DNA of 64,000 bases from contig CBDCYI010000011.1 of the NCBI GenBank assembly GCA_965224085.1, forward strand, positions 1,152,001-1,216,000, written 5' to 3'. Source of the DNA: Candidatus Marinacidobacterales bacterium (GTDB lineage Bacteria; Acidobacteriota; Vicinamibacteria; Marinacidobacterales; SMYC01). The notes beneath the pieces were generated by a model. The model saw only the letters and a list, made by a program, of their open reading frames with translations, made no database searches and was not told where the DNA came from. The position numbers were made by a program, and so were the translations under genes. Below are positions 2,613-58,850 of the stretch, piece after piece; the stretch's first letter is position 1, and each line of letters starts with the position of its first letter.

Positions 2613-2619
2613 TTTCTCT

Positions 2620-2718
2620 GATTCTTTGATAGTCAAACTCCACGACGATGCGAACACCGAGCTGAATGTTGTCCTCAACTGGTTCCATGAGCTCGAACGA
2701 CTGGTACCGACAAAATAA
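2620..2718 (+). pseudogene. C-terminal remnant of a PD40/TolB-repeat Ser/Thr kinase-like gene
   Basis: Reads LIVKLHDDANTELNVVLNWFHELERLVPTK*. The VVLNWFxELxRLVP tail is characteristic of acidobacterial kinase-PD40 proteins. Confidence 0.6.
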
Positions 2719-3281: not shown

Positions 3282-3634
3282 CGCGGCAGCGGGAGCGATA
3301 CCCAGCGTTTCTCGTGATGGGCGGTCTCGACAGCATTGATCGTCTCTTGCACCCACGCGCCGTCGACGAAGCTTCCTTGATTGCGTTCGCCTTCGTCCTG
3401 GATCTCGTCGATGAAATCTTTGATGAGGTTGGCGTAGAAGAGGCTGCGCCACGATTCCCGGGCATGTCCCGCGGCAGGGTAGAATCGTGCGGGGATCGTT
3501 TGCTCTTTGAACTCCACGCCGTCCGGCGTCGCGATGCGGATGGTCTCGGCGACGCCAAACTCTTCGACGAGCCGGCAAATGATGGTGCCCTTCTCGCCGT
3601 AGATCCGTGCTTCGACGCCGGGATAATTCCCGAG
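3278..3634 (-). pseudogene. C-terminal fragment of a Gfo/Idh/MocA oxidoreductase
   Basis: [15 protein letters not shown]...GSFVDGAWVQETINAVETAHHEKRWVSLP*; the Rossmann N-terminus is missing. Confidence 0.7.
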
Positions 3635-3670
3635 ACGCCAGGTGTACGCCAGGTTTACGCCAGGTTTACG
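3635..3670. repeat. 11-bp tandem repeat x3 (ACGCCAGGTKT) at a truncation junction
   Basis: acgccaggtgt acgccaggttt acgccaggttt acg. Confidence 0.9.
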
Positions 3671-3720
3671 AATGCCCGTCTACCTCCTATCATGGAATTA
3701 GCCCTCGGAGCCCCCACGTT

Positions 3721-4779
3721 ATGAACGAGATGAACGAGATGAACGACACAACATCCATCGAATCCTTCGTCCGCGGCCTTCCGAAAGCAGAGCTCCACAT
3801 CCACATCGAAGGCTCGCTCGAGCCCGAGCTCATGTTCGAGCTTGCCAAACGCAACGACATAGCACTTCCGTTCGCCACCGTGGAACAAGTGCGAAACGCC
3901 TACGCGTTCGACGACCTGCAGTCGTTTCTCGACGTCTACTATCAAGGCGCGGCCGTCCTGCTGCACGAGCAGGACTTCTACGAATTGGCCTTCGCTTATC
4001 TCAAAAAGGCAGCGTCTCAGAATGTCTTCCACGCGGAGATTTTTTTTGATCCCCAGACCCATACGGATCGAGGCGTCGCATTCGAGACCGTCCTTCGAGG
4101 GCTCCGGCGGGCGCTCGACGAAGCCGAGAGAACATGGGGTATGTCTTCCGAGTTGATTCTCTGTTTCCTGCGCCATTTGAGTGCGGAGGCGGCTATGGCG
4201 ACCCTAAAAGAGGCACTTCCGTTCCGCGGCCAGATAGCGGCTGTCGGGCTCGACTCTTCGGAGCTCGACTATCCACCTTCGAGATTTCGCCGCGTCTTCG
4301 ATGAAGCCTGCAAAGAAGGATTCCGTACTGTGGCGCATGCGGGAGAGGAAGGACCGCCCGCCTACATATGGGAGGCTCTAATCGACCTTCACGTCTCCCG
4401 GATCGATCACGGCGTTCGCTGTCTCGAGGACTCGGCGCTCGTCGATCATTTGCGCGAGCGTCAGGTTCCGCTCACGGTTTGTCCGCTCTCGAACGTCAAG
4501 CTCCGCGTCTTTGACCGCCTCGAGGACCACAACTTGAAGAAGCTCCTCGACGCGGGATTGTGCGCCACCGTCAACTCCGACGATCCGGCTTACTTCGGCG
4601 GCTACATCGAAGAGAATTTCTTGGGCGTGCAACAAGCGTTGAACCTCGAGCGCACCGATCTGCACCGCCTCGCCCGCAACGCATTCGAAGCGAGCTTTCT
4701 CGCGGAGGACGTCAAGGCGAAGCTCATCGACGAATTGGACGACTACGTCGCGTCGGCGAGCGTTTCCGCGCTGAGTTGA
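3721..4779 (+). CDS. add: Adenine/adenosine deaminase
   Basis: [30 protein letters not shown] and [11 protein letters not shown] motifs. The start lies within ATGAACGAG x3 (3721/3730/3739). Confidence 0.93.
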
Positions 4780-4803
4780 GTCACGGGTAGTTGGCCTGCG
4801 GGT

Positions 4804-5797
4804 TCAAAGCGTGAAGTCCTCGTAGTCAGCACGGCAGGCGCTGGTATACGAGATCCTGAGCGTGGCAGGACCTGGATGGTCGCGGTGGTGTTCCAGTAGT
4901 CGCTGTGCATGCAGAGCGTGCCGTCGTCGGGCTGGCCATCGTCGCCGTGGTCAGCCAGGATCCTCGTGAGGTCGTCCAATCCCAGTGTCGCTCCGTCCGA
5001 CAACAACTCTACGAGCCGGGCCTCGCGCCGCTCCGGCGACTCGAGCACCCTACAACCCCTGAGAGGCGAGGGTGCGCGATCGTCGTAGCACGCTTCGGTT
5101 TCGACCTCGACTTCGCGCATCGACGCTTGGCTGAAGGCATTCGTGTGGTGAAGCACATCGACGCCCTGTGCCGGCCGGCGAAGCGCGGCGCGGGTATTCG
5201 AGAGCTCGAGCGAGATCAGACCCCCATCCGAGTCCGCGATCATGAGGATCCCACCGCCCCAACGCGCCGCATTTGAAATCCGCTCCGCCGCCTGCTCCGC
5301 TGTCGAGCAGGTTCGAAGCGCCTCCGAGATCGCCATCGAGATCGTCGCCGCAGGAGCGCCCTCGTCTGTCGCGAAGGCGTAATCGTAGGTGATCCCCAGG
5401 CCTTTCTCGTTGATACCGTCGACCGCCCCAACCAATGGCGCGCACGTGAACTCGAGCGACCGGAAGCCGCCCTCTGGATGGCAATCGCGCACGATGTAAA
5501 AGGGCTGGACCAGCGGTAAATAGTCGAAATTCCGGGCGATCGCGGGCTGACCATCCTTCGATCGTGGTCCCCGAATCGCTAGAGCCGAGCAGCACGCCAT
5601 GGGCGGTGCGCGGGTACACTCCCGCGTCGACGACATGACCGCCTCCAGTGCGTTGAGCAAATACAGAGCGCTCAAGCCGATTCCCGCTCCCCGCGCCATC
5701 CCTTCGAGGCGCTGCGCGCTGCTGGAAAACTGCTGCCGCAGAGGCGCCTCCAGCGCGCGCGCCTTCCTTTCCGAGATCCATCGAAAGGTCGCGGATA
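4804..5797 (-). pseudogene. C45 family (acyl-CoA:6-APA acyltransferase-like) Ntn peptidase, 5'-truncated and frameshifted near the 3' end
   Basis: CSALA...ARNFDY...DGINEKGL...HHTNAF. The true C-terminus (LRISYTSACRADYEDFTL*) is in another frame; no start codon. Confidence 0.75.
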
Positions 5798-6145
5798 TTC
5801 GTGCCGCCGAAATCCGCCTCGAACACGATCTGGCTTCCGTCCGGGCTGAAGTGCGGGTTCATCTCCCGGCCCGGCATCCGGGTCAGCTGCGTCGGGTTCA
5901 TCTCCCGGCCCGGCATCCGGGTCAGCTGGCGCGCCGCCCGAGGTCGGCACCGTCCAGATGTCAGAGGTGCCCGCCTTGGCGGATTTGAAAGCGATGAGCT
6001 CGCCGTCGGGAGAGATGTCGAACTCCTCGACCCAGACCGTTCGAGCCAGCGCATCGATAGGAAGGGGAGGAAGGGGAGGAAGGGGAGAGCTCTCCGCGAG
6101 AGCTCCGGCCAAAAGGCAACTCATCAGTATCGTTCGAACGTGCAT
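5790..6145 (-). pseudogene. N-terminal fragment of a PD40-repeat (S9 peptidase/TolB-like) protein
   Basis: Signal peptide, FDISPDGELIAFKS...DIWTVPTSGGAP, frameshift, then RQLTRMPGREMNP x2, HFSPDGSQIVFEAD; truncated after that. Confidence 0.7.
5854..5928. repeat. Tandem duplication, 39-bp period (36 bp identical)
   Basis: cgggttcatctcccggcccggcatccgggtcagctg at 5854 and 5893. Confidence 0.9.
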
Positions 6146-16990: not shown

Positions 16991-18778
16991 TCAGCAAGAA
17001 ACGCAGCGGTTGTTGTTCACCGCGCCGAGACTCACGAGAAGATCGCGCGCCTCCGGGAACGGCTGCACGCGCTGAACGGGTCCATTGGCCATATCAGCGG
17101 TGGAGCGATCTTCGCGGTTGACGGCGGTGACGTCGGCGCCTTTCGAGACGAGATACTCGATCAGCTCGACGTGACCCATCGAGGCGGCGTTGTGAAGCGG
17201 CGTGCTGCCTTCTTGATCCCGCGCGTTCACGTCCGCCCCGCACTCTTCCACGAGATAGCGGACGGCCGGCATGAAGCCTGCCGGGTGGTTGCGATGGTCG
17301 TTCGCGGCGAAGCCTTCGCCATAGCCCGCGCCCGTCGCACCGTGTAGCGGCGTCATCGCGGGCCCGCCGACGGGAACCGGCGCTTGCCCGGACACGTCTT
17401 TGATCTCCCGCGCGCTCTGGTTCGCGACCGGCGGACGATAACCGGCATTGCTCGTCGGGATATTCGTGTCCGCGCCATAGGCTCGTAGGAGCTTCATTGC
17501 AGCGACGTCGCTTCCATAGGCAGCGCGCCAAAAAGGTGTGGCGCCTATCTCGTTGATCGACGAGCGGTCGAAGTTATAGCCCATGAACCACACTTTTTTC
17601 TTCACACGGACGTTCGGGTCCGCGCCCGCTAAAAGGAGCGCTTCCATCAGCTCGAGATGGGTGAGCTTTTGTTGTTTGTGCGCGGTCGGTTGCGGGTAGG
17701 CCGCCCGCGGCGCCCAAGCTAGATTGATCGTCGCGTAGAGCGGCGTCACGTCTGCTGGCTCGCTCGCAAGATTGGGATCCGCGCCTTCGTCCACGAGGAG
17801 CTTGGCGAGATCGAAGTGGCCGTTCATCGTCGCGATGAGGAGCGGGCTCGTCTCGCTGCCTTCGGCGACACGATCGATGTCTGCGCCGGCCTCGAGAAGC
17901 GCTCGGACGGAGTCGGTCTGGCCTTGCCGCGCCGCGAAAAGAAGTGCGCTCATCCCGCCTTGCACGCCGACGCGGTTACCGAACGGCTCCCGCTGGCGCC
18001 GAGGCGGTTCGTTCTCCTCGCCGCCACCAGGGATCATCCAGCCAAAGAGCTTCGCGAAGAAGCTCTTTTCGGGCTTTTGGTCATCCTCTACTTGCGCTAC
18101 GTCGTCGCCCGCAGCTTTGGCGCGTGCCTTGCGCAAATCCTCGATCCGCTTCTCGAAACCGTCTCGGATGGCTTTGTTGAGCGTCGGCACGTCGATGACG
18201 TCGGTCACGAGGCTCAGCTCGGCGCCGCGCTCGATGAGAAGCTCGATCACTCTGTGTCGACCGTTGGCCGCGGCGAACATGAGAGCCGTTTGGCCGCCGC
18301 TCGACTCGCGGGCGTTGACATCGGGCTCGCGATCGAGAAGGAGGCGGACCGACTCGACGCTTCCCGAGGCGGAGGCGAACATGAGCGCGGTCGCGCCGGT
18401 CGTCGTGGCGTCGTTCGCGTCGGCCCCCGCAGCGAGAAGCGTCTCGACCATTGACGCGTTTCCGTGCTTGCTCGCGAAAAGCAGAGGCGTATGAGCCCCG
18501 AGCCGAGTGGTCGCGCGGACGTTCGCTCCCGCGTATAGAAGCATCTCTGCCATTGCGACGTCGTTTGCGCGCGCGGCCCAGTGGAGCGCCGTCGTGCCCC
18601 CGCCTTGAGCCGCGTTCACGTCGAGCCCTTGCTGCAACAATGCGCGTACCACTTCACGGTCGCCTTGCTCTGCCGCGTCCGCGACGGGGAAGGGGCTCAT
18701 CGTGACGTCGACCGGCCCTGCTGCCGCCAAAGCAAAAACGCCGAGCGCGAGAATCATCCGGTATCGCATCTTTCTCAT
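16991..18778 (-). CDS. Secreted ankyrin-repeat protein
   Basis: Multiple G.TALHWAA / TPLLFAS / TALMFAA repeats; typical third gene of the DUF1592-DUF1552 cluster. Confidence 0.92.
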   Translation of the reverse strand: MRKMRYRMILALGVFALAAAGPVDVTMSPFPVADAAEQGDREVVRALLQQGLDVNAAQGGGTTALHWAARANDVAMAEMLLYAGANVRATTRLGAHTPLLFASKHGNASMVETLLAAGADANDATTTGATALMFASASGSVESVRLLLDREPDVNARESSGGQTALMFAAANGRHRVIELLIERGAELSLVTDVIDVPTLNKAIRDGFEKRIEDLRKARAKAAGDDVAQVEDDQKPEKSFFAKLFGWMIPGGGEENEPPRRQREPFGNRVGVQGGMSALLFAARQGQTDSVRALLEAGADIDRVAEGSETSPLLIATMNGHFDLAKLLVDEGADPNLASEPADVTPLYATINLAWAPRAAYPQPTAHKQQKLTHLELMEALLLAGADPNVRVKKKVWFMGYNFDRSSINEIGATPFWRAAYGSDVAAMKLLRAYGADTNIPTSNAGYRPPVANQSAREIKDVSGQAPVPVGGPAMTPLHGATGAGYGEGFAANDHRNHPAGFMPAVRYLVEECGADVNARDQEGSTPLHNAASMGHVELIEYLVSKGADVTAVNREDRSTADMANGPVQRVQPFPEARDLLVSLGAVNNNRCVSC

Positions 18779-18807
18779 GGTCTACCCGGTCTCATGGTCT
18801 ACCCGGT
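18773..18807. repeat. 17-bp tandem duplication spanning the DUF1552 stop and the ankyrin start
   Basis: tctcatggtctacccgg x2; also present in the duplicated copy at 24962-24996. Confidence 0.9.
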
Positions 18808-20205
18808 GACCTCCGTTTGGCTCACTGGAACGCTCGTCAAGTCGAGCGGCTCGGTGCTGTCTCCGAAGGACTCGCGATCGTCGAAGCCGAGCTTGTGCAG
18901 AACGCTCAGCATGGCGTTGGCTGTCGGCGTTTGGTCGGCCGCTTTGATGTGAAGGTTTCCTGGGAGCTGGCCATTCGCGTGGCCAGCGAGAAAGAGGGGA
19001 ACGCGTTTGTGGTTGTGAATGTTCGGGTCTCCCATCGGGGAGCCGTAGAGAATCAGGCTCTTCTCTAGAAGGTCGCTCCCGTTCTCCTCGGCGTCCTGAA
19101 GCTTCTTCAGCAGATAGGGCACGAGGCTCACGTGGTAGAGGTTGATCTTCGATAGCTTGATGACGCCTGGCTCCCGGCCCCTGTGATGAGAAGCATTGTG
19201 AAAGCCTTCGTAGACGCCGCTTTCGGGAAACGAACGCCCCGAGACATCGCGGCTCATCTTGAACGAGACGACGCGCGTCATGTCGGCCATAAAGGCAAGC
19301 GTCATCAGATCGAACATGATCTCGACGTGCTCGCTATAGGAGTCGGGCACGCCGATCGGGGCATCCGGAAGCTCGCGGAGCTCGCCGCTTTGGTTGCGCT
19401 CTTCGACTTTCTCGATGCGCCGCTCGATCTCCCGGATGTTCTCGAGATAGGCATCGAGCCGGTTTCGATCGCTCGGGCCGAGCGTTCCTTTGAGCCGTGC
19501 GACCTCGCTCGGGATCCAGTCGAGGATGCTGCGATGGGCCTCGCGCCGCGCGGCACGCTTTTCCGGACTTCCGCCGGAGCCGAAGAGCTGGTCGAAGGCC
19601 AGGCGCGGATCGCGGATCATGGGGAGCGGCTCTGTCGCCGATGCCCAGCTGATTGTATCCATGTAGACGCAGGCATAGCCGTAGAGGCAGCCGCCCGACT
19701 GGTCCACGTTCTCGATACACAGCTGCATCGAGGGGATGGGATTGTCTTGGCCGAACCGCTGAGCGTAGAGCTGATCGAGCGACGTTCCCGCGGTAATGTC
19801 CGAGCCTTCGGTTTGCTTCGGGTGCGATTGCGTGAGGTAGACGGAGCTCGAGCGGAAATGGTCGCCTCCGGTCTCCGGCGGTGTGAACGCCTCGGCGTTG
19901 CGGGTGTCGGTGTTGCTCACGATCGTGACGTAATCGCGAAAGGGTTCGAGCGGGCTCAAGCTGCTCGGCGTCAAATCGAAATCGTGGCCCACGGCGGCGG
20001 GCGACCAAAGGTTTTTCTCGGCGCCGATCTTGTTGCTGCCGGCGGCGCCATGCACCATCTCCATGCACACCAAACGTGTTGGGTCGGTGGTCGCCCCCCA
20101 GGCTTTGCGGGTGGGGATCATCGCCTCCAACATCGGAAGCGCCACCGTTGCGCCCATACCGCGCAGCACGCTGCGGCGGGATATGTGTTTGTTCGTTACG
20201 TACAC
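18799..20205 (-). CDS. DUF1552 (HXXSHH) domain protein
   Basis: ISRRSVLRGMGATVALPMLEAM N-terminus; FHNASHH motif; YGSPMGDPNIHNH. GTG start near 20205 is approximate. Confidence 0.9.
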   Translation of the reverse strand: MYVTNKHISRRSVLRGMGATVALPMLEAMIPTRKAWGATTDPTRLVCMEMVHGAAGSNKIGAEKNLWSPAAVGHDFDLTPSSLSPLEPFRDYVTIVSNTDTRNAEAFTPPETGGDHFRSSSVYLTQSHPKQTEGSDITAGTSLDQLYAQRFGQDNPIPSMQLCIENVDQSGGCLYGYACVYMDTISWASATEPLPMIRDPRLAFDQLFGSGGSPEKRAARREAHRSILDWIPSEVARLKGTLGPSDRNRLDAYLENIREIERRIEKVEERNQSGELRELPDAPIGVPDSYSEHVEIMFDLMTLAFMADMTRVVSFKMSRDVSGRSFPESGVYEGFHNASHHRGREPGVIKLSKINLYHVSLVPYLLKKLQDAEENGSDLLEKSLILYGSPMGDPNIHNHKRVPLFLAGHANGQLPGNLHIKAADQTPTANAMLSVLHKLGFDDRESFGDSTEPLDLTSVPVSQTEVTG

Positions 20206-20215
20206 GGGACTCTCC

Positions 20216-22669
20216 TTACGGATGTTGAACGACACCCACGGTCTCGGTCTCGGTGTCCCCAGTCTCGGCGGTGCTCATCCGAAACGGCGCGCTGTTGACG
20301 ACGCCTAGGATGAAGGAGGACATCCGGTTGTCGTTCTTGGCGGCGTCCGCCGCAATCTTGCGAATTGCGGGCATGTCGAAATACTCGACCCTTCGTCCGA
20401 GCGCGTAGGTCATGAGGCTTTCAGTGAAGGTCATGATAACAGAGTCTCGATAATTGAGCATCGCGTCGCGGAGGCCGAGCGGGCCGTCGAGCGGGGTTCC
20501 GTCGTAGAGCTCGCCCGATGCGTCGATGGGGACCCCGTCATCTTTCGTACGCCACGCGCCGGTCACGTCGAAATTCTCGAGCGCGAGGCCGATGGGGTCG
20601 ATCACCGCGTGGCACGAGTTGCAGGCAGGGTTCGCGCGATGTTCTTCCATGCGCTCGCGTACCGAGAGACGCCTGTCACCCGCGACGTCCTCCGTCTCCT
20701 CGAGCGCCGGCACGTTGGGCGGTGGCGGGGGCGGGGGGCTTCCGAGCAAAACCTCCATGACCCATTTCCCGCGTTGGACCGGCGAGGTGCGATTCGCGAT
20801 GGCCGTGAGCGCGAGGATACTGCCATGGCCGAAGAGCCCGCGGCGGTTTCGGTTGATGCCGTCGAGCGGGACCCGGCGGAACCTGTCGCCGGTGACGTTC
20901 GGGATCCGGTAATGCCGCGCGAGCCTTTCGTTGACGAAAGTGTAGTCGGCTGTCAGAAGCTCCACGACGCTCCGGTCCTTGCGCACGAGGTTTTCGAAGA
21001 ACAGCTCGGTCTCGCGCTTCATCGCGTCGGCAAGGGTCGCGTCATAAAGGGGATAGGTCAAAGCGTCCGGGTGCAGTTTGTGAAGATCCTGGAGCCGCAG
21101 CCATTGCGACGCAAAACGCGTGGCGAGCGTTTCCGAGCGTTCATCGTCCACCATGCGACTTACTTGCTGTTCGAAGATAGCGGCGTCTGATAACTTTCCG
21201 TCCGCGGCGAGCGCCAAGAGCTCTTCGTCGGGAGGGCTCGACCACAAGAAAAACGACAAACGCGACGCGAGATCGACGTCTGCGATGCTATAGCTCTCGC
21301 CGGGCGCCGCGTGAGACGGCGACGGCTCCAAACGAAAGATGAAGCTCGGGCTCGCAAGGATCGCTTGAAGAGCCATCCGGATGCCGCTCTCGAAGTCGCC
21401 TCCCTCGCGCCCAATCATATAGAACGACATGAAGGCTTCGAGATCCGCATTGATGAGGGGGCGTCGATAAGCGCGCTTTGCGAGGTTGGTCACGATCTCT
21501 TCGGCGCAGGGAAGCTCTTCTTTCGATGTCGTCGGGCGGCAGATGAAAATGCGGCGCCGGGCGGGGGTGTCGGAGACGCCCGTGACGTTATACGGCCCAC
21601 TGATGTTGAAATCGCGAAGATGCGGCACGGTCGTGACGCCGTAATCCGTGCCGATTTCGCTATCGGCGAGGGTGTGCTCGATCGGGATGAGCAAGTCTTG
21701 GACGGGAGCTTCTGAATGGACGAGAAAGGCGGCGGTGACCCTTTGCGGGCCCGCCTTGACGTAAATGGGCTCGCTCTGAATCGTCAAACCGTTCGGTTCG
21801 GTCTCGGAGAGCATGGGATCCACGTCCAAGAGCGCGACCCGCGCGCCGTTGACTGAAACCTCGATTTGCTCGTTTCCGGCCGGACGGCCAAAGAGCTCGC
21901 CCTCGGGCGAGCCGTGAAGCAGCGCCTTGAAGATGTAATCGCCATCGGCGCGGAAGATGTTGACGACGGAGATACCGCCGCGCGTTCCGAACGGTGCGCC
22001 TTGGGCGCGACGCGTCTGGGACGCTGTCCGCGGGACTTTGAACGTGACTTCGCTAGGGTCGGCCGCGGGATCGCCGACGGCGAGACGGCTGACTTGGTCG
22101 GCGGCGCGCAGATAGCTATCCATTAGCGTCGGCGACATGCTTTGAACGTCGGCGATGTTGTCGAAGCTATGGCTTACCGTGTCGGGCGGCAAGAGCGCGG
22201 CGACGTCGACGTCGAGCGCGAGCAGGTAGGCGACTGAGGTCCTATATTCGGCGCGGTTGAGACGCTGGAAGTCTCGCCGTCCGGGGTTGGGACTCGAGAA
22301 GTAAGCCGCGTCGATCCTCGACTCGAGCGCGGCGTTGAAGGCTGCGACCTCGGCGCGGTCGGGCCGAGAGGCATAGGAAGGCGGCATCATGCCGGTGCGC
22401 AGCTTGCGGAGAATTTTTTCCGCGACCTCGGTATCGCGCCCGAGCTTCGACGCGTCGAAGGACTCCAAGGTGAGGCCGCCCGTCAACGCCGCGTCGCTGT
22501 GGCACATGAGGCAATAGTCTTCGACCATCGCGCGCTGCTCGGCGAGCGACATCATGCCTTCTGGGAGCGCAAACTCCTCTTGTGCCGCCACGACTTGCGT
22601 GCAAGCAAGTGCGGCCCCCACTATTCCTGCGGAGAAAGTACGCATAGTGACCCTTCCGTTCGAGCTCAT
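20216..22669 (-). CDS. DUF1592/DUF1587/DUF1595/DUF1588/DUF1585 cytochrome c-like protein
   Basis: CLMCH and CNSCH heme motifs; RLNRAEY, LASRLSFFLWSSPPD and TSPVQRGKWV motifs. Confidence 0.92.
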   Translation of the reverse strand: MSSNGRVTMRTFSAGIVGAALACTQVVAAQEEFALPEGMMSLAEQRAMVEDYCLMCHSDAALTGGLTLESFDASKLGRDTEVAEKILRKLRTGMMPPSYASRPDRAEVAAFNAALESRIDAAYFSSPNPGRRDFQRLNRAEYRTSVAYLLALDVDVAALLPPDTVSHSFDNIADVQSMSPTLMDSYLRAADQVSRLAVGDPAADPSEVTFKVPRTASQTRRAQGAPFGTRGGISVVNIFRADGDYIFKALLHGSPEGELFGRPAGNEQIEVSVNGARVALLDVDPMLSETEPNGLTIQSEPIYVKAGPQRVTAAFLVHSEAPVQDLLIPIEHTLADSEIGTDYGVTTVPHLRDFNISGPYNVTGVSDTPARRRIFICRPTTSKEELPCAEEIVTNLAKRAYRRPLINADLEAFMSFYMIGREGGDFESGIRMALQAILASPSFIFRLEPSPSHAAPGESYSIADVDLASRLSFFLWSSPPDEELLALAADGKLSDAAIFEQQVSRMVDDERSETLATRFASQWLRLQDLHKLHPDALTYPLYDATLADAMKRETELFFENLVRKDRSVVELLTADYTFVNERLARHYRIPNVTGDRFRRVPLDGINRNRRGLFGHGSILALTAIANRTSPVQRGKWVMEVLLGSPPPPPPPNVPALEETEDVAGDRRLSVRERMEEHRANPACNSCHAVIDPIGLALENFDVTGAWRTKDDGVPIDASGELYDGTPLDGPLGLRDAMLNYRDSVIMTFTESLMTYALGRRVEYFDMPAIRKIAADAAKNDNRMSSFILGVVNSAPFRMSTAETGDTETETVGVVQHP

Positions 22670-23570: not shown

Positions 23571-24967
23571 GCTTGCCCGGACACGTCTTTGATCTCCCGC
23601 GCGCTCTGGTTCGCGACCGGCGGACGATAACCGGCATTGCTCGTCGGGATATTCGTGTCCGCGCCATAGGCTCGTAGGAGCTTCATTGCAGCGACGTCGC
23701 TTCCATAGGCAGCGCGCCAAAAAGGTGTGGCGCCTATCTCGTTGATCGACGAGCGGTCGAAGTTATAGCCCATGAACCACACTTTTTTCTTCACACGGAC
23801 GTTCGGGTCCGCGCCCGCTAAAAGGAGCGCTTCCATCAGCTCGAGATGGGTGAGCTTTTGTTGTTTGTGCGCGGTCGGTTGCGGGTAGGCCGCCCGCGGC
23901 GCCCAAGCTAGATTGATCGTCGCGTAGAGCGGCGTCACGTCTGCTGGCTCGCTCGCAAGATTGGGATCCGCGCCTTCGTCCACGAGGAGCTTGGCGAGAT
24001 CGAAGTGGCCGTTCATCGTCGCGATGAGGAGCGGGCTCGTCTCGCTGCCTTCGGCGACACGATCGATGTCTGCGCCGGCCTCGAGAAGCGCTCGGACGGA
24101 GTCGGTCTGGCCTTGCCGCGCCGCGAAAAGAAGTGCGCTCATCCCGCCTTGCACGCCGACGCGGTTACCGAACGGCTCCCGCTGGCGCCGAGGCGGTTCG
24201 TTCTCCTCGCCGCCACCAGGGATCATCCAGCCAAAGAGCTTCGCGAAGAAGCTCTTTTCGGGCTTTTGGTCATCCTCTACTTGCGCTACGTCGTCGCCCG
24301 CAGCTTTGGCGCGTGCCTTGCGCAAATCCTCGATCCGCTTCTCGAAACCGTCTCGGATGGCTTTGTTGAGCGTCGGCACGTCGATGACGTCGGTCACGAG
24401 GCTCAGCTCGGCGCCGCGCTCGATGAGAAGCTCGATCACTCTGTGTCGACCGTTGGCCGCGGCGAACATGAGAGCCGTTTGGCCGCCGCTCGACTCGCGG
24501 GCGTTGACATCGGGCTCGCGATCGAGAAGGAGGCGGACCGACTCGACGCTTCCCGAGGCGGAGGCGAACATGAGCGCGGTCGCGCCGGTCGTCGTGGCGT
24601 CGTTCGCGTCGGCCCCCGCAGCGAGAAGCGTCTCGACCATTGACGCGTTTCCGTGCTTGCTCGCGAAAAGCAGAGGCGTATGAGCCCCGAGCCGAGTGGT
24701 CGCGCGGACGTTCGCTCCCGCGTATAGAAGCATCTCTGCCATTGCGACGTCGTTTGCGCGCGCGGCCCAGTGGAGCGCCGTCGTGCCCCCGCCTTGAGCC
24801 GCGTTCACGTCGAGCCCTTGCTGCAACAATGCGCGTACCACTTCACGGTCGCCTTGCTCTGCCGCGTCCGCGACGGGGAAGGGGCTCATCGTGACGTCGA
24901 CCGGCCCTGCTGCCGCCAAAGCAAAAACGCCGAGCGCGAGAATCATCCGGTATCGCATCTTTCTCAT
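23567..24967 (-). pseudogene. 3'-truncated duplicate of the ankyrin-repeat gene
   Basis: Identical to the first 466 aa of the 595-aa protein at 16991-18778. Confidence 0.88.
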
Positions 24968-24987: not shown

Positions 24988-26394
24988 CTACCCGGTGACC
25001 TCCGTTTGGCTCACTGGAACGCTCGTCAAGTCGAGCGGCTCGGTGCTGTCTCCGAAGGACTCGCGATCGTCGAAGCCGAGCTTGTGCAGAACGCTCAGCA
25101 TGGCGTTGGCTGTCGGCGTTTGGTCGGCCGCTTTGATGTGAAGGTTTCCTGGGAGCTGGCCATTCGCGTGGCCAGCGAGAAAGAGGGGAACGCGTTTGTG
25201 GTTGTGAATGTTCGGGTCTCCCATCGGGGAGCCGTAGAGAATCAGGCTCTTCTCTAGAAGGTCGCTCCCGTTCTCCTCGGCGTCCTGAAGCTTCTTCAGC
25301 AGATAGGGCACGAGGCTCACGTGGTAGAGGTTGATCTTCGATAGCTTGATGACGCCTGGCTCCCGGCCCCTGTGATGAGAAGCATTGTGAAAGCCTTCGT
25401 AGACGCCGCTTTCGGGAAACGAACGCCCCGAGACATCGCGGCTCATCTTGAACGAGACGACGCGCGTCATGTCGGCCATAAAGGCAAGCGTCATCAGATC
25501 GAACATGATCTCGACGTGCTCGCTATAGGAGTCGGGCACGCCGATCGGGGCATCCGGAAGCTCGCGGAGCTCGCCGCTTTGGTTGCGCTCTTCGACTTTC
25601 TCGATGCGCCGCTCGATCTCCCGGATGTTCTCGAGATAGGCATCGAGCCGGTTTCGATCGCTCGGGCCGAGCGTTCCTTTGAGCCGTGCGACCTCGCTCG
25701 GGATCCAGTCGAGGATGCTGCGATGGGCCTCGCGCCGCGCGGCACGCTTTTCCGAACTTCCGCCGGAGCCGAAGAGCTGGTCGAAGGCCAGGCGCGGATC
25801 GCGGATCATGGGGAGCGGCTCTGTCGCCGATGCCCAGCTGATTGTATCCATGTAGACGCAGGCATAGCCGTAGAGGCAGCCGCCCGACTGGTCCACGTTC
25901 TCGATACACAGCTGCATCGAGGGGATGGGATTGTCTTGGCCGAACCGCTGAGCGTAGAGCTGATCGAGCGACGTTCCCGCGGTAATGTCCGAGCCTTCGG
26001 TTTGCTTCGGGTGCGATTGCGTGAGGTAGACGGAGCTCGAGCGGAAATGGTCGCCTCCGGTCTCCGGCGGTGTGAACGCCTCGGCGTTGCGGGTGTCGGT
26101 GTTGCTCACGATCGTGACGTAATCGCGAAAGGGTTCGAGCGGGCTCAAGCTGCTCGGCGTCAAATCGAAATCGTGGCCCACGGCGGCGGGCGACCAAAGG
26201 TTTTTCTCGGCGCCGATCTTGTTGCTGCCGGCGGCGCCATGCACCATCTCCATGCACACCAAACGTGTTGGGTCGGTGGTCGCCCCCCAGGCTTTGCGGG
26301 TGGGGATCATCGCCTCCAACATCGGAAGCGCCACCGTTGCGCCCATACCGCGCAGCACGCTGCGGCGGGATATGTGTTTGTTCGTTACGTACAC
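24988..26394 (-). CDS. DUF1552 protein, complete duplicate (one P-to-S change)
   Basis: GGSSEK here vs GGSPEK in copy 1; otherwise the translations are identical. Confidence 0.88.
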   Translation of the reverse strand: MYVTNKHISRRSVLRGMGATVALPMLEAMIPTRKAWGATTDPTRLVCMEMVHGAAGSNKIGAEKNLWSPAAVGHDFDLTPSSLSPLEPFRDYVTIVSNTDTRNAEAFTPPETGGDHFRSSSVYLTQSHPKQTEGSDITAGTSLDQLYAQRFGQDNPIPSMQLCIENVDQSGGCLYGYACVYMDTISWASATEPLPMIRDPRLAFDQLFGSGGSSEKRAARREAHRSILDWIPSEVARLKGTLGPSDRNRLDAYLENIREIERRIEKVEERNQSGELRELPDAPIGVPDSYSEHVEIMFDLMTLAFMADMTRVVSFKMSRDVSGRSFPESGVYEGFHNASHHRGREPGVIKLSKINLYHVSLVPYLLKKLQDAEENGSDLLEKSLILYGSPMGDPNIHNHKRVPLFLAGHANGQLPGNLHIKAADQTPTANAMLSVLHKLGFDDRESFGDSTEPLDLTSVPVSQTEVTG

Positions 26395-26404
26395 GGGACT
26401 CTCC

Positions 26405-26831
26405 TTACGGATGTTGAACGACACCCACGGTCTCGGTCTCGGTGTCCCCAGTCTCGGCGGTGCTCATCCGAAACGGCGCGCTGTTGACGACGCCTAGGAT
26501 GAAGGAGGACATCCGGTTGTCGTTCTTGGCGGCGTCCGCCGCAATCTTGCGAATTGCGGGCATGTCGAAATACTCGACCCTTCGTCCGAGCGCGTAGGTC
26601 ATGAGGCTTTCAGTGAAGGTCATGATAACAGAGTCTCGATAATTGAGCATCGCGTCGCGGAGGCCGAGCGGGCCGTCGAGCGGGGTTCCGTCGTAGAGCT
26701 CGCCCGATGCGTCGATGGGGACCCCGTCATCTTTCGTACGCCACGCGCCGGTCACGTCGAAATTCTCGAGCGCGAGGCCGATGGGGTCGATCACCGCGTG
26801 GCACGAGTTGCAGGCAGGGTTCGCGCGATGT
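26405..26831 (-). pseudogene. 5'-truncated duplicate of the DUF1592 gene (C-terminal part only)
   Basis: HRANPACNSCH...VVQHP* identical to the end of 20216-22669. Confidence 0.88.
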
Positions 26832-34619: not shown

Positions 34620-34881
34620 CTACTTAATAAGGATAACGCCGCGCGAAAGCTTTTGCCCGCTTCCGGTATAATCCGGCCCTTCGTGAGTGTATAGGGTAAG
34701 AGCGGTGACCCATAGGTCTTCGCTGTCGCCGATATCGAGAAGAGTGAATGGGTCGAAATCTAAACTCGCCGCCGCGCTCTCACTGTCCTGTACGCAAAGC
34801 GAGCCGCGTAATAGCCTCATCTTCGCATCGAGCGCCGACGCTACAACGCTCGACCCGACAATGAAGCGCCGGTAGGGGGGG

Positions 34882-36000
34882 CTACACCGCAACAAGAGGG
34901 GGTGGTTCAACTCTTCCCGGGCAGAGTTCATACGACGGCGCCGGTTCACCGACTCGGTCGGCTGAACGACGGTACGCGGCCATTTGCTCTTTGCCGAAGT
35001 CCAGCTCCGCCATGTACAAGTTGTGGCAGTGGCACATGAGCCGAATATTCTTCGCGCTACGATCGCCACCGAGTCCGTAAGCGTCGTTGTGATGGTACTC
35101 GAGCCGGTGGCGCTCGGGACATCGTTTGCCGTCAGGAGTGACGAACGTGCATCGCCCGCCATCTCGTGCCCACACGTAACGCTTCACCGCGGCAGCGATG
35201 CCACGCACACCCGGCGACGTGTCGGCGTCTTCGACTTTCGTTCTCGGATGATTCGTCTTCCCGAAACGCTTGGCTTCGAGCCGCTCGAGCTTCTCGCTCA
35301 CGGCCGCGTCGATGACCGAAGCGAGGTCACTGCCGGGAATGAGCGCCTCGAGCCGCTGGAGCTTGTCGCGAAGCGCGGCGCTAGCCGTGAACCGTACTTC
35401 GAAACGCGCCGGCGAAAGTGGCGCGACCGCCGGCCGCTTTTCAGGGATCGCCGGAGCGGCCGGAGGCGGCTCCGGCTCCTCGCGCGTGACAGCTCTGTCC
35501 GGGAAGAGTTCGTCCGACGATTCGGACGATTTGGACCGGGCCTGCCGTTGCGGCCTCTTTCGAATCGTCGGTGGAACATCCGGTTTCGGAGCCAACTCCG
35601 CCACGAGCTCTTCGAGGGCACGTTTGCTCTTGTGAGTGGCTCTTGCCAAGACCTCTTCGCAATTGGCCTCGGTGAGATGCTTTGAGATCACGGTGATACC
35701 ACACAAATGAATGCGACCATCCTCGAGCATCGCGAGGAGCATGGGAAATCTGCGTGACAGCCGAGCGGCGCTGATTCGCCGATAAGCTTCCGCTTCAGAT
35801 AAATGTAAAACGTCCATGCAGTAGCTGAACATCGACGGCGAAGCTTCTTTGGCGTAGAGACGCCGCGCATCGACTTCAGCGATATGCGCGACGAGCACAG
35901 CCTCGCCACGCCGCGACTGTTTCGAGACATCCGCCAGTCGAACAAGAAGCTCGTCATCCGATAATGCCGAGAGCGATTTCAAATCGTCCTTTGTGCTCAT
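34882..36000 (-). CDS. HNH endonuclease with helical (DUF222-like) N-terminus and central RHH-like segment
   Basis: LVAHIAEVDARRLY...SMFSYC...LSEAEAYRRI N-terminus; VRFTASAALRDKLQRL middle; RDGGRCTF..RC...LEYHH...NIRLMCHCHN HNH/Zn domain. Confidence 0.85.
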   Translation of the reverse strand: MSTKDDLKSLSALSDDELLVRLADVSKQSRRGEAVLVAHIAEVDARRLYAKEASPSMFSYCMDVLHLSEAEAYRRISAARLSRRFPMLLAMLEDGRIHLCGITVISKHLTEANCEEVLARATHKSKRALEELVAELAPKPDVPPTIRKRPQRQARSKSSESSDELFPDRAVTREEPEPPPAAPAIPEKRPAVAPLSPARFEVRFTASAALRDKLQRLEALIPGSDLASVIDAAVSEKLERLEAKRFGKTNHPRTKVEDADTSPGVRGIAAAVKRYVWARDGGRCTFVTPDGKRCPERHRLEYHHNDAYGLGGDRSAKNIRLMCHCHNLYMAELDFGKEQMAAYRRSADRVGEPAPSYELCPGRVEPPPLVAV

Positions 36001-36214
36001 AGGTTCTTATAGCACGGACTTTTTCGACGCTCACAGTTCCAGCGTGATCCACACCAACGCGCCGAAACACTTTCGAAGTCTCCTCGAACGAGAGAGCATG
36101 GCTGTCGCTTCGTTGCCGTACACAGAGACCCCCAACGGATCGAGCGCGAGGTCTTTTTGCAAATCGCGTGCAAAAATCCGTCAAGGAGAAAATGGGTCCG
36201 GACCGAACTTTTAT

Positions 36215-36238
36215 TCAACTCTTCCCGGGAAGAGTTGA
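36215..36238. repeat. Perfect 24-bp palindrome upstream of the HNH gene; variants at 34909-34928 and 35491-35510
   Basis: TCAACTCTTCCCGGGAAGAGTTGA; variants AACTCTTCCCGGGCAGAGTT and AGCTCTGTCCGGGAAGAGTT. Confidence 0.9.
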
Positions 36239-36373
36239 CGTTCACTCGGCAGAATCAAAACGATACTGGCGCCCGGAAACGCGGGACTTCAACGTGCTTT
36301 TACGACCTCGATCCGCTCTTCCCGATCGAAGACTGAGAGGCCATAATGTCTCGTTCGGAGAAAGGAGATTCTC

Positions 36374-37147: not shown

Positions 37148-37225
37148 GGCTTCGCGGAGCAGCCAGGAGTGCTCGTCCGGTTGTCAGCCGGAAGGTCGCG
37201 GGTTCGAATCCCGCCGGAGCCGCCA
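37148..37225 (+). tRNA. tRNA-Asp(GTC), slightly atypical (C at position 8)
   Basis: Cloverleaf: GGCTTCG/CGGAGCC acceptor, TCCGG-TTGTCAG-CCGGA anticodon arm, GCGGG-TTCGAAT-CCCGC T arm, G73, CCA. Confidence 0.85.
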
Positions 37226-37232
37226 TTTTCGT

Positions 37233-37309
37233 CGGAGTGTAGCGCAGACTGGCAGCGCGCCCGGCTTGGGACCGGGAGGCCGATGGTTCGAATCCATCCG
37301 CTCCGACCA
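37233..37309 (+). tRNA. tRNA-Pro(TGG)
   Basis: CGGAGTG/CGCTCCG acceptor, CCCGG-CTTGGGA-CCGGG anticodon arm, GATGG-TTCGAAT-CCATC T arm, ACCA end. Confidence 0.9.
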
Positions 37310-37322
37310 GTTTGTGTTCGAT

Positions 37323-37397
37323 TGAGGCGTGGTCGATGGGTAAGGCACCCGGTTGTTACCCGGGCTCATGTAGGTGCGAATCCTACCGCGGCTTCCA
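37323..37397 (+). tRNA. Degenerate tRNA with GTT (Asn) anticodon; probable pseudo-tRNA
   Basis: Anticodon arm CCCGG-TTGTTAC-CCGGG and T stem GTAGG/CCTAC are intact, but the T loop is TGCGAAT and the acceptor stem has three mismatches; ends TCCA. Confidence 0.55.
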
Positions 37398-37503: not shown

Positions 37504-37520
37504 AGAGGCCTGCTAGCTAG

Positions 37521-39202
37521 TACCCGTCCTGACAGGTGTAAGAGGTTGAGAAAAAAGGGGTAATCGCAAATTTAGGGCTAGCCTTCTGAGGGAGTGTCGT
37601 TTAGTATCGAGTCGACAAAAACGCAGATTCTAAACGACTTAACTCCAAAGGAGACCAGCCCTAAATGCGAAAAACGATCAACCCACAACCAAGCCTTCGC
37701 GAGCCCTGGCTGGAGCTGGAGCACGCACGCGAACTCGAAACGATATCATCGCTGCTCGATGCCCATCCTAAGCTCAATGAGCTGGTACTGCAAGACCTGA
37801 GGTCGGTCACCCCATCGGCAGGGAGCGATGTTGGTCGTGGGGGAATGAGCGCGGAGCAGGTTCTCCGGGCGTTGTTGGTCAAGCAGCTGAATCAGTTCAC
37901 CTATCGGGAGCTGGCGTTTCACTTGGCAGACTCTCGAAGCTATCGGACGTTTTGCCAGCTCGGCATCATAGAGCCGAGCCCGTCGAAGTCGACCCTAGCA
38001 GCAAACATCAAAGCCGTGAAGTTCGAAACGCTGGAGAAAATCAACCGAGAGCTGGTGAGTGTTGCCGAGAAGACCGCGATCGAAAAAGGAAGAAAAGTAC
38101 GAGTGGACTGCACGGTAGTGGAGTCGAATATTCATTCTCCTACGGACTCCGAGCTTCTTTATGACTGCGTCCGAGTTCTCACTCGCCTCATGTGCCGAAC
38201 TCGCGAACTGCTGGGTACAGTAGTGGTCTTCGGCAATCGAACGCGTCGAGCGAAGAGACGTCGACTGGGAGTTCTAAACGCGAAGGATAAGGAACAAAGG
38301 CGTCGCGTCTATCGAGATCTACTGAAGGTGTCGGAAGAAACCTATCGCTCCGCTCAACGCGTTGCAGACCAGTTGGACGAGTCCGGCTTGACCGAGCCGG
38401 TGAAGCGAGCGAGTGCGGAGAAGATCGCCGCGGATTTTAAGCACTTTCTCGTCCTCACCGAAAAAGTCATCAACCAAACTCGGCGTAGAGTGATTGATGA
38501 AGAGCGTGTGCCTGCGGAGGAAAAGGTCGTTTCGATCTTCGAAGAACACACCGACATTATTCGCAAAGACCGGCGCGAGACTCTCTACGGTCACAAGGTG
38601 TGTTTGACTGGTGGCTCGTCCTCGATGATTTTGGATTGCGTGATCTTGGATGGGAATCCGTCCGATTCAACTCTCGCGGAAACCATGATCGACCGTCAAG
38701 TCGAACTCTACGAACGGGCCCCGCGCCAGGTTGCCTACGATGGCGCGTTTTCTTCAAAGGCAAACTTGGAAGCCATCAAAGGCAAGGGAGTTGAAGATGT
38801 TGCCTTTACCAAGGCTCACTTCGCGGTGACCGATATGGTCAAGAGTTCCTGGGTCTATCAACGCCTACGGCGATTTCGCTGCGGAATCGAAGGCGTCATT
38901 TCGTTCTTGAAACGAGTCTTTGGTCTCGACCGATGCACATGGCGCTCATTGCCTTCTTTCAAATCCTACGTATGGAGTTCCATCATCACCTGCAACCTGT
39001 TGGTAATGGCAAGGCACCTATTACGATAATAATGATTGCTCTTACTGCGTTTATAGCCATGGATTGCTGACGATTCGCCTCTCGTTTCGTCCAAGATTTT
39101 CATTCGCTTCCGAGCCTACGAGGTGCCGACTGAAAACGTATAATACCCACATCTTCGATAGGCCTCTCGTACACCACAAGTTATGGTGTTTCTGGACAGG
39201 AA
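37521..39202 (+). mobile_element. ISNCY/IS5-like insertion sequence, complete
   Basis: Imperfect terminal IRs (TACCCGTCCTGACA / TTCCTGTCCAGAAA on the opposite strand); CTAGCTAG on both flanks; the right end is confirmed by the second copy at 46275. Confidence 0.85.
37665..39029 (+). CDS. ISNCY-family DDE transposase
   Basis: GRGGMSAEQVLRAL, RVDCTVVESNIHSPTDS, YGHKV, YDGAF and RFRCGIEGVISFLKR motifs. Confidence 0.92.
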   Translation: MRKTINPQPSLREPWLELEHARELETISSLLDAHPKLNELVLQDLRSVTPSAGSDVGRGGMSAEQVLRALLVKQLNQFTYRELAFHLADSRSYRTFCQLGIIEPSPSKSTLAANIKAVKFETLEKINRELVSVAEKTAIEKGRKVRVDCTVVESNIHSPTDSELLYDCVRVLTRLMCRTRELLGTVVVFGNRTRRAKRRRLGVLNAKDKEQRRRVYRDLLKVSEETYRSAQRVADQLDESGLTEPVKRASAEKIAADFKHFLVLTEKVINQTRRRVIDEERVPAEEKVVSIFEEHTDIIRKDRRETLYGHKVCLTGGSSSMILDCVILDGNPSDSTLAETMIDRQVELYERAPRQVAYDGAFSSKANLEAIKGKGVEDVAFTKAHFAVTDMVKSSWVYQRLRRFRCGIEGVISFLKRVFGLDRCTWRSLPSFKSYVWSSIITCNLLVMARHLLR

Positions 39203-57660: not shown

Positions 57661-57680
57661 GACTCTGCACGTGCGGAGTT
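57661..57680. repeat. 20-bp palindrome upstream of the third HNH gene; variant inside the gene at 58541-58558
   Basis: GACTCT-GCACGTGC-GGAGTT; internal variant ACCTC-GCGCGCGC-AGGGT. Confidence 0.6.
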
Positions 57681-57773
57681 GGAGATAAAACGTCCGATCA
57701 TCTGACGCATCCAGCGTACAGGGAGGAAACGAAACCCAAAACTCGTCTTATACCTATATAAGGAGTCGCGCCC

Positions 57774-58850
57774 ATGATTCTGCGGTTCAAGAACTATTTC
57801 TCGCACCTCGAACGACGCACACATGCGGAGCTCGATTCTTCGGCCGAGAAGCTGGTGCGGGGAGAGAAACGAAACGTCGCTCTGCTCATCGCTTATCTTT
57901 CAGAGATGTCGCGGCGAAAGACCGCGCTCGAGCTCGGCTACAAGAGCCTCTTCGACTATTGCGTCAACAGACTGAAGCTGAGCGAGGGCTCTGTCGCGCG
58001 TCGCATTCAAGTGGCTAACGTGGCCAGGCGGTTTCCGCAGATGCTCGTTGCGTTGGCTGAGAACACGATCACCTTGACGGCCGCGGGACTTCTCGCTCCG
58101 CACCTTCGCACCAACAATGCCGATAAGTTGATCTCCGATGGCGCCGGCCTTTCCTCCCGTGCCGTCGAGGAGTGTCTCGTCGCGTTACAGCCGCGGGCCG
58201 TCTTTCGATCGTCGATCCGCAAGCAGCCAAGGGCGACCAAGAACACTCCGAAAGCGGCGCCTGCGCCACCATCAGGTGTGCCGCCCACTCCGAGGCCGCC
58301 GACCCCTCCCGTCGTGCAACCCGCGCGCCCCGAGACGTTCAACTTCCGCTTCTCCGCCGACAAGGAATTCAAAGAAAAGCTCGAGCGGTTGGCGGAGGTG
58401 ATGGGCGTCGAGAATCCCGCACAGCATATGGCCGAGCTTTTAGGGGCGGCCGTCGATCTCGCGCTCGAGAAGAAGGATCCGAAGAAGAAACTCGAAAGAC
58501 GCCGGAAGCGAGAAAGCCAACGCCAAACGCCCGAGTCGCGACCTCGCGCGCGCAGGGTGTCACCAAAAGTAACAGAAGTGCCCTCACGCTATGTGACGTC
58601 GGCGGTGCGCGAGCGTGTGTTCGCTCGCGCGGGGTACCAATGCGAGTATCGAAGTTGGGACGGGACGCGGTGCAGCTCGCGCACGGGGCTAGAGCTCGAG
58701 CATACACGGCCGTTCGGCGTTGTTCCAAGCCACGACGAGAAGCTGCTGAAAGCCTTGTGCCGTGCGCATAACCGTTTGGCCGCCGATCGTTTCTACGGCA
58801 CCGAGTTCATGGAAGCGAAGGTTGCGGAGGCCCGATCGCGCTCGGGCTAG
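57774..58850 (+). CDS. HNH endonuclease, same family as 34882-36000 (divergent)
   Basis: LIAYLSEM.RRK...GYKSLFDYC..LKLSEG...RRI; FRFSADKEFKEKLERL; RAGYQCEY..RC...LELEH...ALCRAHN. Confidence 0.85.
   Translation: MILRFKNYFSHLERRTHAELDSSAEKLVRGEKRNVALLIAYLSEMSRRKTALELGYKSLFDYCVNRLKLSEGSVARRIQVANVARRFPQMLVALAENTITLTAAGLLAPHLRTNNADKLISDGAGLSSRAVEECLVALQPRAVFRSSIRKQPRATKNTPKAAPAPPSGVPPTPRPPTPPVVQPARPETFNFRFSADKEFKEKLERLAEVMGVENPAQHMAELLGAAVDLALEKKDPKKKLERRRKRESQRQTPESRPRARRVSPKVTEVPSRYVTSAVRERVFARAGYQCEYRSWDGTRCSSRTGLELEHTRPFGVVPSHDEKLLKALCRAHNRLAADRFYGTEFMEAKVAEARSRSG

Follow-up and report, generated by a model that had tools for sequence, protein, structure and literature searches.

The repeat unit known from mycobacteria as REP13E12 is about 1.3 to 1.4 kb in size. 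In the accessible passages of three papers, 13E12 repeat or REP13E12 is the name of this kind of gene in Mycobacterium tuberculosis (PMC10589994, PMC13157036, PMC3381160), and according to such passages, REP13E12 loci are among the most gene-converted loci of that species, with 87 events (PMC13061034), and are over-represented more than 400-fold at inversion breakpoints (PMC13157036); LexA binds most of the 13E12-family genes there (PMC3381160). Here, we describe a locus of this kind in a 64,000-nucleotide stretch of Candidatus Marinacidobacterales bacterium (contig CBDCYI010000011.1, positions 1,152,001 to 1,216,000), hereafter called the window. Its gene, at 34882-36000, carries three copies of a palindrome, and as judged by sequence comparison, the locus is one copy of a multi-copy DUF222-HNH cassette of ~1.36 kb of the REP13E12 kind. 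Like REP13E12, it combines a DUF222 domain (in the window protein) with an HNH domain (in 14 of 37 relatives) in a unit of about 1.3 to 1.4 kb, and it is multi-copy, broken copies included, and has no transposase. Unlike REP13E12, its host belongs to the Acidobacteriota and its palindromes are absent before lexA-like genes and recA; moreover, neither palindromic cognate sites nor an architecture of ParB-like and ribbon-helix-helix (RHH) parts is mentioned for 13E12 in the portions of the literature that were searched. No paper returned by that search connects DUF222/13E12 genes to palindromes of their own or to a fold resembling that of ParB.

The protein had 15 matches in its own genome (G000; 6.87 Mb), only two of them near full length, and of the 19 genomes examined from its bacterial family, 18 had matches at E values of up to 1e-60. 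There were up to 19 copies in G018, 16 in G012 and 12 in G010, many of them fragments or with stop codons. Against a library of 1.84 billion representatives, the protein found 17,532 clusters at E values of up to 0.001 and 2,879 at up to 1e-30. A second subfamily, to which the third family member of the window belongs, was multi-copy in 10 of the 19 genomes. Nucleotide homology defined the edges of the unit. Homology with a paralogue in the same genome (G000 C11:766950-768157) runs from inside the gene to 36237, that is, exactly to the upstream palindrome, which is the 5' edge of the repeated unit, and homology with locus L017 begins at that palindrome as well. The 3' end lies within a few bases of the HNH stop codon: homology with another paralogue (G000 C4:1014448) stops at 34877, 5 bp beyond it. 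When 13 loci from several genomes were compared, cross-genome alignments were confined to a stretch of ~1.32-1.36 kb from the palindrome/promoter block to a few bases past the stop codon (~1264 to 2624 in the coordinates of this comparison), and no homology was found between the flanks of loci of different genomes. The unit is thus dispersed, multi-copy and without a transposase, and its upstream and 3' sites are subterminal. In one derivative (G000 C5:160450-160900), an internal deletion has removed all of the open reading frame (ORF) but its final ~26 codons, which include the 3' site; the upstream site and block are still present. In line with the mobility that the first-pass annotation had suspected, the family is multi-copy and stands in different contexts in different genomes.

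The three palindromes of the gene were found as that annotation had described them, in position and in peptide reading: the upstream copy is perfect over 24 bp and lies 215 bp upstream of the ATG at 36000, the 3' copy has 8 of 9 pairs and the internal copy 6 of 9. A degenerate copy also stands at the 3' position of the truncated homologue. The pattern ACTCT-N8-AGAGT occurred twice in the window against 0.04 expected, and the frame ACT-N4-CCGG-N4-AGT, with at most one mismatch, had four matches in the window, all within family members. In the whole 6.87-Mb genome, the 20-bp core, with up to 4 mismatches, had 12 matches, half of them in family units, and there were 15 ACT..AGT palindromes, about half of them in family units or remnants. 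The upstream palindrome is followed by a block of ~190 bp that is kept in relatives down to 57% protein identity and includes an extended -10-like box (TGCTATAAG), 5 nt ahead of the ATG; a consensus promoter scan called no promoter-like site, and a terminator scan gave only two terminator-like sites, with no excess over shuffles. The decamer GGTCCGGACC between palindrome and block recurs at the equivalent place in L020 and L021, both of which lack the large upstream palindrome.

To see whether the palindromes are kept, 84 related elements were pooled and scanned for CCGG-centred 18-mers with at least 8 of 9 pairs. We found 66 such 18-mers, 35 of them at +420 to +539 relative to the ATG (internal), 14 at +1020 to +1079 (3' zone) and 9 at -300 to -181 (upstream zone); by table count, 34 elements had an internal, 13 a 3' and 12 an upstream site. 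The whole genome contains 109 CCGG-centred 18-mers of this quality, and at that density, only ~2-3 would be expected in the ~150 kb scanned, an enrichment of ~25-fold. The palindromes are therefore more frequent in these elements than their density in the whole genome predicts. Distant relatives (47-60% identity) mostly retain the internal site alone.

The sites share a common frame, ACT-NNNN-CCGG-NNNN-AGT, in which the inner four bases vary between elements as mirror images. The mirror is perfect in 32 of 77 sites, with 12 inner-base types (13 types over 54 elements), and the peptides encoded by the types, as read from the site sequences, change accordingly (ELGPDRV, ELRPDGV, ELGPDPV, ELVPERV, ELCPDTV, ELCPGRV, ELFPGRV and ELSPGRV). 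Synonymous positions are fixed in the listed sites, the proline codon always being CCG and the sixth codon always ending in A, and the non-coding upstream copies obey the identical frame. A palindrome that arises by coding coincidence, ERLEAL at +600 to +720, showed no comparable mirrored variation. Furthermore, all five elements with two sites of at least 8 of 9 pairs have the same type at both (the window element, in one arm, and L071, L085, L111 and L139), for which the chance is ~0.115 per element from the type frequencies. Since the changes are mirrored and alter the peptide, the frame is fixed, sites within an element agree and positions are conserved, these comparisons strongly support a cause at the level of the nucleic acid, be it selection or a directed process; selection at the DNA (or RNA) level, as proposed in the first-pass annotation, is thus upheld by the same three places in relatives and by mirrored, peptide-altering changes. 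A single host factor that reads all site types is unlikely, because G018 alone has at least five perfect types and the co-resident second subfamily has a palindrome class of its own (ATCTCGTCCGGACGAGAT and variants), at a different linker (+720 to +800), in 11 of 21 loci. Exchange of arms at the CCGG centre was dropped as evidence: 21 of 36 imperfect sites combine two arms of known type, but Arg coding bias in the right arm can explain this number.

Two further sites were seen in truncated settings. A solitary, near-perfect site, AACTGTGCCCGGACACAGTT, lies between two genes at G000 C11:633053-633072 with the in-frame reading ..STELCPDTVE.. and is, judging from this reading, a tiny remnant of a cassette linker. 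In L098 (G012), a copy that comprises the C-terminal part only begins at the internal site (1540-1560), with CTGG as the centre and unrelated sequence directly upstream.

The protein was modelled with AlphaFold by using an alignment of 37 sequences (mean predicted local distance difference test score [pLDDT], 75). The DUF222 domain was recovered (Pfam PF02720, residues 22-127, E = 7.1e-7, 29.3 bits against a cutoff of 24.4; 10 of the 37 aligned relatives match). The HNH domain (PF01844) matched in 14 of 37 relatives (best E value, 2.9e-5), and the window protein itself gave no match at E values of up to 0.1; its assignment comes from fold matches (GVE2 HNH, Z = 6.5; McrA, 6.4; Gme HNH nickase, 5.9) and from residues C284, C294, H304, H326 and N327 of the HNH motif, which are invariant in the 37 sequences. 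The RHH-like segment was supported by a dimer model, but Pfam gave no RHH family for this piece. The helical domain resembles the DNA-binding domains (DBDs) of ParB with parS (6s6h_B, Z = 8.7), Spo0J (1vz0_A, Z = 8.4, root mean square deviation of 3.6 over 108 residues) and KorB with its operator (1r71_A, Z = 7.5), two of the matched structures having been solved on palindromic sites. The N-terminal ParB/Srx CTPase domain is absent: Pfam, run on the whole protein at E values of up to 0.1, gave DUF222 alone, and the confident fold starts at about residue 10.

For residues 192-250, homodimer prediction gave a score of 0.46, against 0.00 for the best of three controls, with residues 201-206 in contact across the copies; runs agreed in at least 94% of contacts, and the partner pLDDT was at least 72. 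Among proteins of solved structure, 20 of 30 that form pairs of one chain attained this mark, compared with 1 of 23 single-chain proteins; the result may reflect likeness to solved RHH dimers. The segment 199-206 is of low confidence and was taken as the ribbon strand. Residues 192-250 are thus predicted to form an RHH-like dimer via an antiparallel ribbon and the helices, and a predicted twofold symmetric DNA binder with an intact HNH motif would plausibly fit a palindromic site. Both coding palindromes lie in disordered segments, between or after the folded domains (Table 1), as had been expected from the letters.

Table 1. Features of the cassette and of its family members in the window
Feature	Position	Strand	Remarks
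Upstream palindrome TCAACTCTTCCCGGGAAGAGTTGA	36215-36238	.	Perfect 24 bp, CCCGGG centre
10-bp mini-palindrome GGTCCGGACC	36195-36204	.	Between the 24-bp palindrome and the TTGACG box
Conserved upstream block, ~190 bp	36001-36194	-	TTGACG at 36179-36184; TGCTATAAG at 36006-36014
DUF222-HNH gene, 372 aa	34882-36000	-	ORF; Pfam DUF222
Helical DNA-binding domain (DUF222)	35581-35973 (residues 10-140)	-	pLDDT ~90; ParB/KorB-like fold (moderate match)
Disordered linker	residues 155-205		pLDDT below 50
Internal palindrome	35492-35509	.	Codes ELFPDRA, residues 164-170; degenerate, 6/9 pairs; in disordered linker
Strand-helix-helix module, RHH-like	35263-35406 (residues 199-246)	-	Helices 208-220 and 226-246; pLDDT mid-50s to upper 70s
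HNH nuclease domain	34966-35193 (residues 270-345)	-	pLDDT ~90
Disordered C-terminal tail	residues 348-372		pLDDT below 50
3' palindrome, + strand ACTCTTCCCGGGCAGAGT	34910-34927	.	Codes ELCPGRV, residues 355-361; 8/9 pairs; in disordered C-terminal tail
3' junction	34858-34881	+	Last codons and stop of peptide-permease gene abut HNH stop codon
Truncated family member	2279-2626	-	Residues 250-365, 62% identical; degenerate 3' site at 2283-2300
Third family member, other subfamily	57662-58850 including near-palindrome; gene 57774-58850	+	358 aa, 33% identical

Two loci were compared with congeners. At the window locus, homology with four congeners ends at 34857-34861, and at this point all four carry a solute-binding-protein gene that is intact. 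In the window, an ORF of 62 codons (34687-34875) is chimeric, with the first ~57-60 codons of the solute-binding-protein gene joined to the last five codons of the permease; the joint of the solute-binding-protein and peptide-permease pieces is a short microhomology and was made by deletion. In G003, the end of the permease at the same place is followed by a 3' remnant of an HNH gene (82% identical), and the insertion of the cassette is therefore older than the split of G000 and G003. In G002 and G004, the cassette is absent from this locus. At the paralogue locus (G000 C11), 3.8 kb, made up of a cassette and an IS110-family element interrupting it, is replaced by 411-441 bp of unrelated DNA in G002 and G003. 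The IS110-family element (DEDD_Tnp_IS110, Transposase_20; L050 ~3580-5950, equal to G000 C11:764.6-766.9 kb) breaks the HNH part of the paralogue and has the same ~30-bp sequence at both of its ends. In the cassette unit itself, neither a transposase nor terminal inverted repeats were found, and no target duplication was visible, as the first-pass annotation had said. With many copies per genome, many of them broken, no shared flanks and presence/absence differences between congeners, the cassette family behaves as selfish, patchy DNA.

Public contigs from four sequencing runs, which cannot reveal rare variants, covered the window locus and bridged both outer palindromes without joints there, and a search of a plasmid collection gave no match. 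Swapping of modules at the internal site was considered and rejected, since the identities of N- and C-terminal parts correlate (r = 0.74), with no convincing outliers. In three copies from two genera (L094 2243-4230, L097 ~1640-1900 and L100; G012 and G010), the same DDE insertion sequence lies at or beside the internal palindrome. It has terminal inverted repeats and encodes a 537-residue transposase that matches DDE_Tnp_1_6, DUF772 and DDE_Tnp_1, and a target preference of this insertion sequence for cassette palindromes is possible.

The best reading of the locus, to which we give about an even chance, is that of a self-recognising nuclease cassette. The cassette would encode a dimeric DNA-binding nuclease composed of a ParB/KorB-like domain, a disordered linker, an RHH dimer module and an HNH domain, and would carry one to three CCGG-centred palindromes of 18-24 bp, upstream of the promoter-like block, in the linker-coding DNA and in the tail-coding DNA. 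With slightly better than even confidence, we take the palindromes to be the sites that the protein dimer encoded by the cassette recognises. The dimer would make direct readout of the invariant outer ACT/AGT and of the CCGG centre, and the form recognised could be either the duplex or an extruded hairpin or cruciform. The upstream site might also have a role in autoregulation. More speculative, and in our judgement doubtful, is the further step that binding positions the HNH domain to nick or break the cassette's own copies, leading to gene conversion, rearrangement and spread.

If the dimer reads the variable inner bases as well, residues that change with the site would be expected. Outside the columns that encode the site, the two residues sharing most mutual information with it were 74 and 70, both in helix 69-84; ribbon residue 203 was E or A with GTGT sites in 5 of 5 cases and R or N with CTxC sites in 5 of 6. 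Residues 70, 74 and 203 are therefore suggestive candidates for site-reading residues.

Several observations weigh against the self-recognising nuclease cassette. Site type changes at least 23 to 25 times on trees of 44-45 proteins, and the window's own clade (at least 78% identity, residues 69-76 identical) alone has four site types. No code survived a phylogeny-aware test, independent-pair tests of a protein-to-site code having too few pairs (p of at least 0.5). If the inner bases are read by the protein, specificity turnover must be very fast; if they are unread, duplex binding gives no reason for mirroring, which favours pairing in a hairpin or a mutational process. The fold evidence is moderate: Raf1 equals the ParB-type match (Z = 8.6), such Z values are common for helical domains, Foldseek gave nothing at E values of up to 0.001 and a profile search of Protein Data Bank sequences gave no match. 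Of ~69 elements in which the linker is covered, only 34 show at least 8 of 9 pairs at the internal site, so that the sites are dispensable for the persistence of a copy, and the window's own internal site is degenerate. Finally, at both loci compared with congeners, the cassette stands in place of other DNA, and neither locus yielded a clean empty site, a clean junction or a target duplication; the comparison with empty sites that the first-pass annotation had in mind thus gave presence/absence differences at two loci but not the clean empty site.

The main rival, which we consider unlikely, is that the palindromes function in a folded form, as hairpins or cruciforms of single-stranded or supercoiled DNA, of which the shape, the CCGG loop and the ACT/AGT foot of the stem are recognised by the HNH protein or by a host enzyme. 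Its models are the REP hairpins of RAYT systems, the IS200/IS605 ends bound by TnpA and the attC sites of integron integrases; a stem needs pairing alone and therefore covaries freely. Indeed, mirroring was kept through the repeated inner-base changes on the tree while the predicted DNA-reading residues showed no consistent change, and if the fixed frame alone is read, mirroring of the inner bases speaks for a paired stem, in a hairpin or a cruciform. The perfect sites (32 of 77), the subterminal placement of the upstream and 3' sites and the DDE insertion sequences at or next to the internal site of three copies from two genera also fit, some insertion sequences being known to prefer hairpin-forming DNA. 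However, the palindromes continue through the centre without a spacer, and mismatched pairs had no G-T wobble bias on either strand (GT plus TG, 16; CA plus AC, 22). The N-terminal fold is like the duplex-binding domains of ParB and KorB, and Pfam gave no HUH or other single-strand transposase in the unit. Moreover, inner bases agree within the element in 5 of 5 cases, whereas independent hairpins need no agreement; this within-element agreement favours a reader or exchange between sites.

Much less likely is a role of the hairpins at the mRNA level rather than in the DNA, whether in transcript processing, in stability or in pausing of translation between domains. Two of the three positions are transcribed, the coding sites lie exactly between folded domains and covariation of a stem is the classic signature of RNA structure. 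However, the upstream copy precedes the conserved promoter-like boxes, the sense strand had no wobble bias, the upstream block (36001-36240) had no Rfam match at E values of up to 1, and RNAalifold gave 0 pairs, and thus no conserved RNA fold, for 13 upstream regions; a spacer-free palindrome with an invariant CCGG centre would also be unusual for an RNA hairpin.

A shade less likely again is that the mirrored changes have no function and arise by quasi-palindrome correction, that is, template switching in replication, with the frame reflecting a conserved peptide, E-L-x-P-x-x-V. The inner bases do turn over fast without a protein code, and the right arm often codes for Arg (AGA/CGA), which suggests some coding constraint, with both arms of known type in the 21 of 36 imperfect sites mentioned above. 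Against this explanation, the frame is kept in the non-coding upstream copies and the synonymous positions are fixed. The position is kept down to 47% protein identity, with ~25-fold enrichment, sites within one element agree, and the palindromes of the second subfamily are of another class and stand at another linker.

It is highly improbable that the palindromes serve a regulator of the host as operators, for example as an SOS (LexA-type) box. In the accessible text of PMC3381160, six LexA peaks lie at 13E12-family genes of M. tuberculosis and some LexA sites are intragenic, and 13E12 genes are induced by DNA damage according to passages of PMC13157036. The upstream site here lies 30-46 bp ahead of a conserved TTGACA-like box, but this spacing is variable, two of the three positions are within coding DNA, sites genome-wide are concentrated in family units or remnants, and one genome has at least five site types next to a second subfamily with another class. 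No such site was found upstream of three LexA-like genes or recA in the window's genome, and an SOS-box identity of the palindromes was therefore rejected. The three LexA-like genes are at G000 C9:246689, C11:1633844 and C11:1294199, and a separate strong palindrome, whose arms are 11 bp long and which is unlike the cassette sites, lies before the third. Equally improbable are landing pads for other mobile elements such as insertion sequences or integrases. REP13E12 is known to serve as the phiRv1 attachment site, two papers describe it as carrying a phage attachment site (PMC3381160, PMC13061034), and L094, L097 and L100 have the DDE insertion sequence (DDE_Tnp_1_6, DUF772) at or near their internal palindrome. 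However, these are 3 insertions among 84 elements, the IS110 element in the paralogue of the window's genome is not inserted at a palindrome, and the idea leaves unexplained why the cassette maintains palindromes at three positions whose inner bases match.

The proposed self-recognising nuclease cassette shares features with several known systems. Like ParB-parS and KorB-operator pairs, it combines a predicted dimer with short, perfect palindromic sites, and the fold of its helical DNA-binding domain is a moderate match to theirs; parB genes, too, can contain a parS site. Unlike ParB and KorB, the cassette protein has no ParB N-terminal CTPase domain by Pfam and has an HNH domain and an RHH module attached; its sites do not extend beyond the element and vary from one paralogue to another, and no partition role is evident. 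The likeness to REP/RAYT systems that the first-pass annotation had drawn holds in that the palindromes belong to the gene: as in these systems and at IS200/IS605 ends, palindromes of a type particular to the gene lie on both sides of it, their arms covary and there is an internal-deletion derivative that looks non-autonomous. It does not hold for the enzyme, which is HNH and not HUH/Y1 (Pfam gave DUF222 and HNH only), nor for abundance, the 12 core matches in 6.87 Mb contrasting with tens to hundreds of dispersed extragenic copies, and two of the three sites are in coding sequence. Free-standing HNH homing endonucleases, finally, are likewise selfish HNH genes with a specific DNA site that spread presumably via break repair. 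However, insertion of a homing gene destroys its site, whereas the cassette's sites are intact and flank and bisect the gene, and the cassette has no intron, intein or conserved host target gene and is inserted in differing contexts.

A bolder claim, which we think distinctly unlikely, is that DUF222-HNH cassettes are a distinct autonomous class of mobile or self-propagating elements, in which a ParB-like/RHH DNA-binding HNH nuclease recognises element-specific, CCGG-centred palindromes in the middle and at the ends of its gene, probably as extruded hairpins, cuts them and copies itself by break repair. If true, the cassettes would be an HNH-driven counterpart of REP/RAYT and IS200/IS605 systems, and this would account for 13E12-type loci as hot spots of gene conversion and inversion.

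Other features of the window were noted alongside. The third family member has a near-palindrome, ACTCTGCACGTGCGGAGT, at 57662-57679, 112 bp upstream of its ATG, that differs from the palindrome of the window gene. Three tRNA genes (Asp-GTC, Pro-TGG and Asn-GTT) are clustered at 37148-37397, ~0.9 kb from the cassette's upstream palindrome; tRNA clusters are a classic neighbourhood for inserted DNA. Directly past this cluster, at 37507-37692, is a ~180-bp repeat with matches of 87-88% identity, at least 40 in G002 and at least 30 in G003, that has the appearance of a small interspersed element. Two direct repeats of 100% identity (17382-17681 and 23571-23870; spacing, 6189 bp) and the ORF pair 18799-20235 and 24988-26424 suggest a tandem duplication of several kilobases or an assembly artefact.

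The DUF222-HNH superfamily is very large, as the 17,532 cluster representatives found by this one protein indicate, and its best-known members, the 13E12 repeats, are without a defined function in the accessible passages of the papers that place them among the most recombined loci of M. tuberculosis (PMC13061034, PMC13157036). An element-specific site in cis, together with a predicted dimeric DNA-binding architecture, leads to a direct biochemical question, namely, whether the nuclease binds or cuts its own palindromes and drives recombination between copies. With its mirrored variation, the family offers naturally occurring site variants on which specificity could be tested, and palindromes with arms that change together give a testable mechanism for a family of unknown function.

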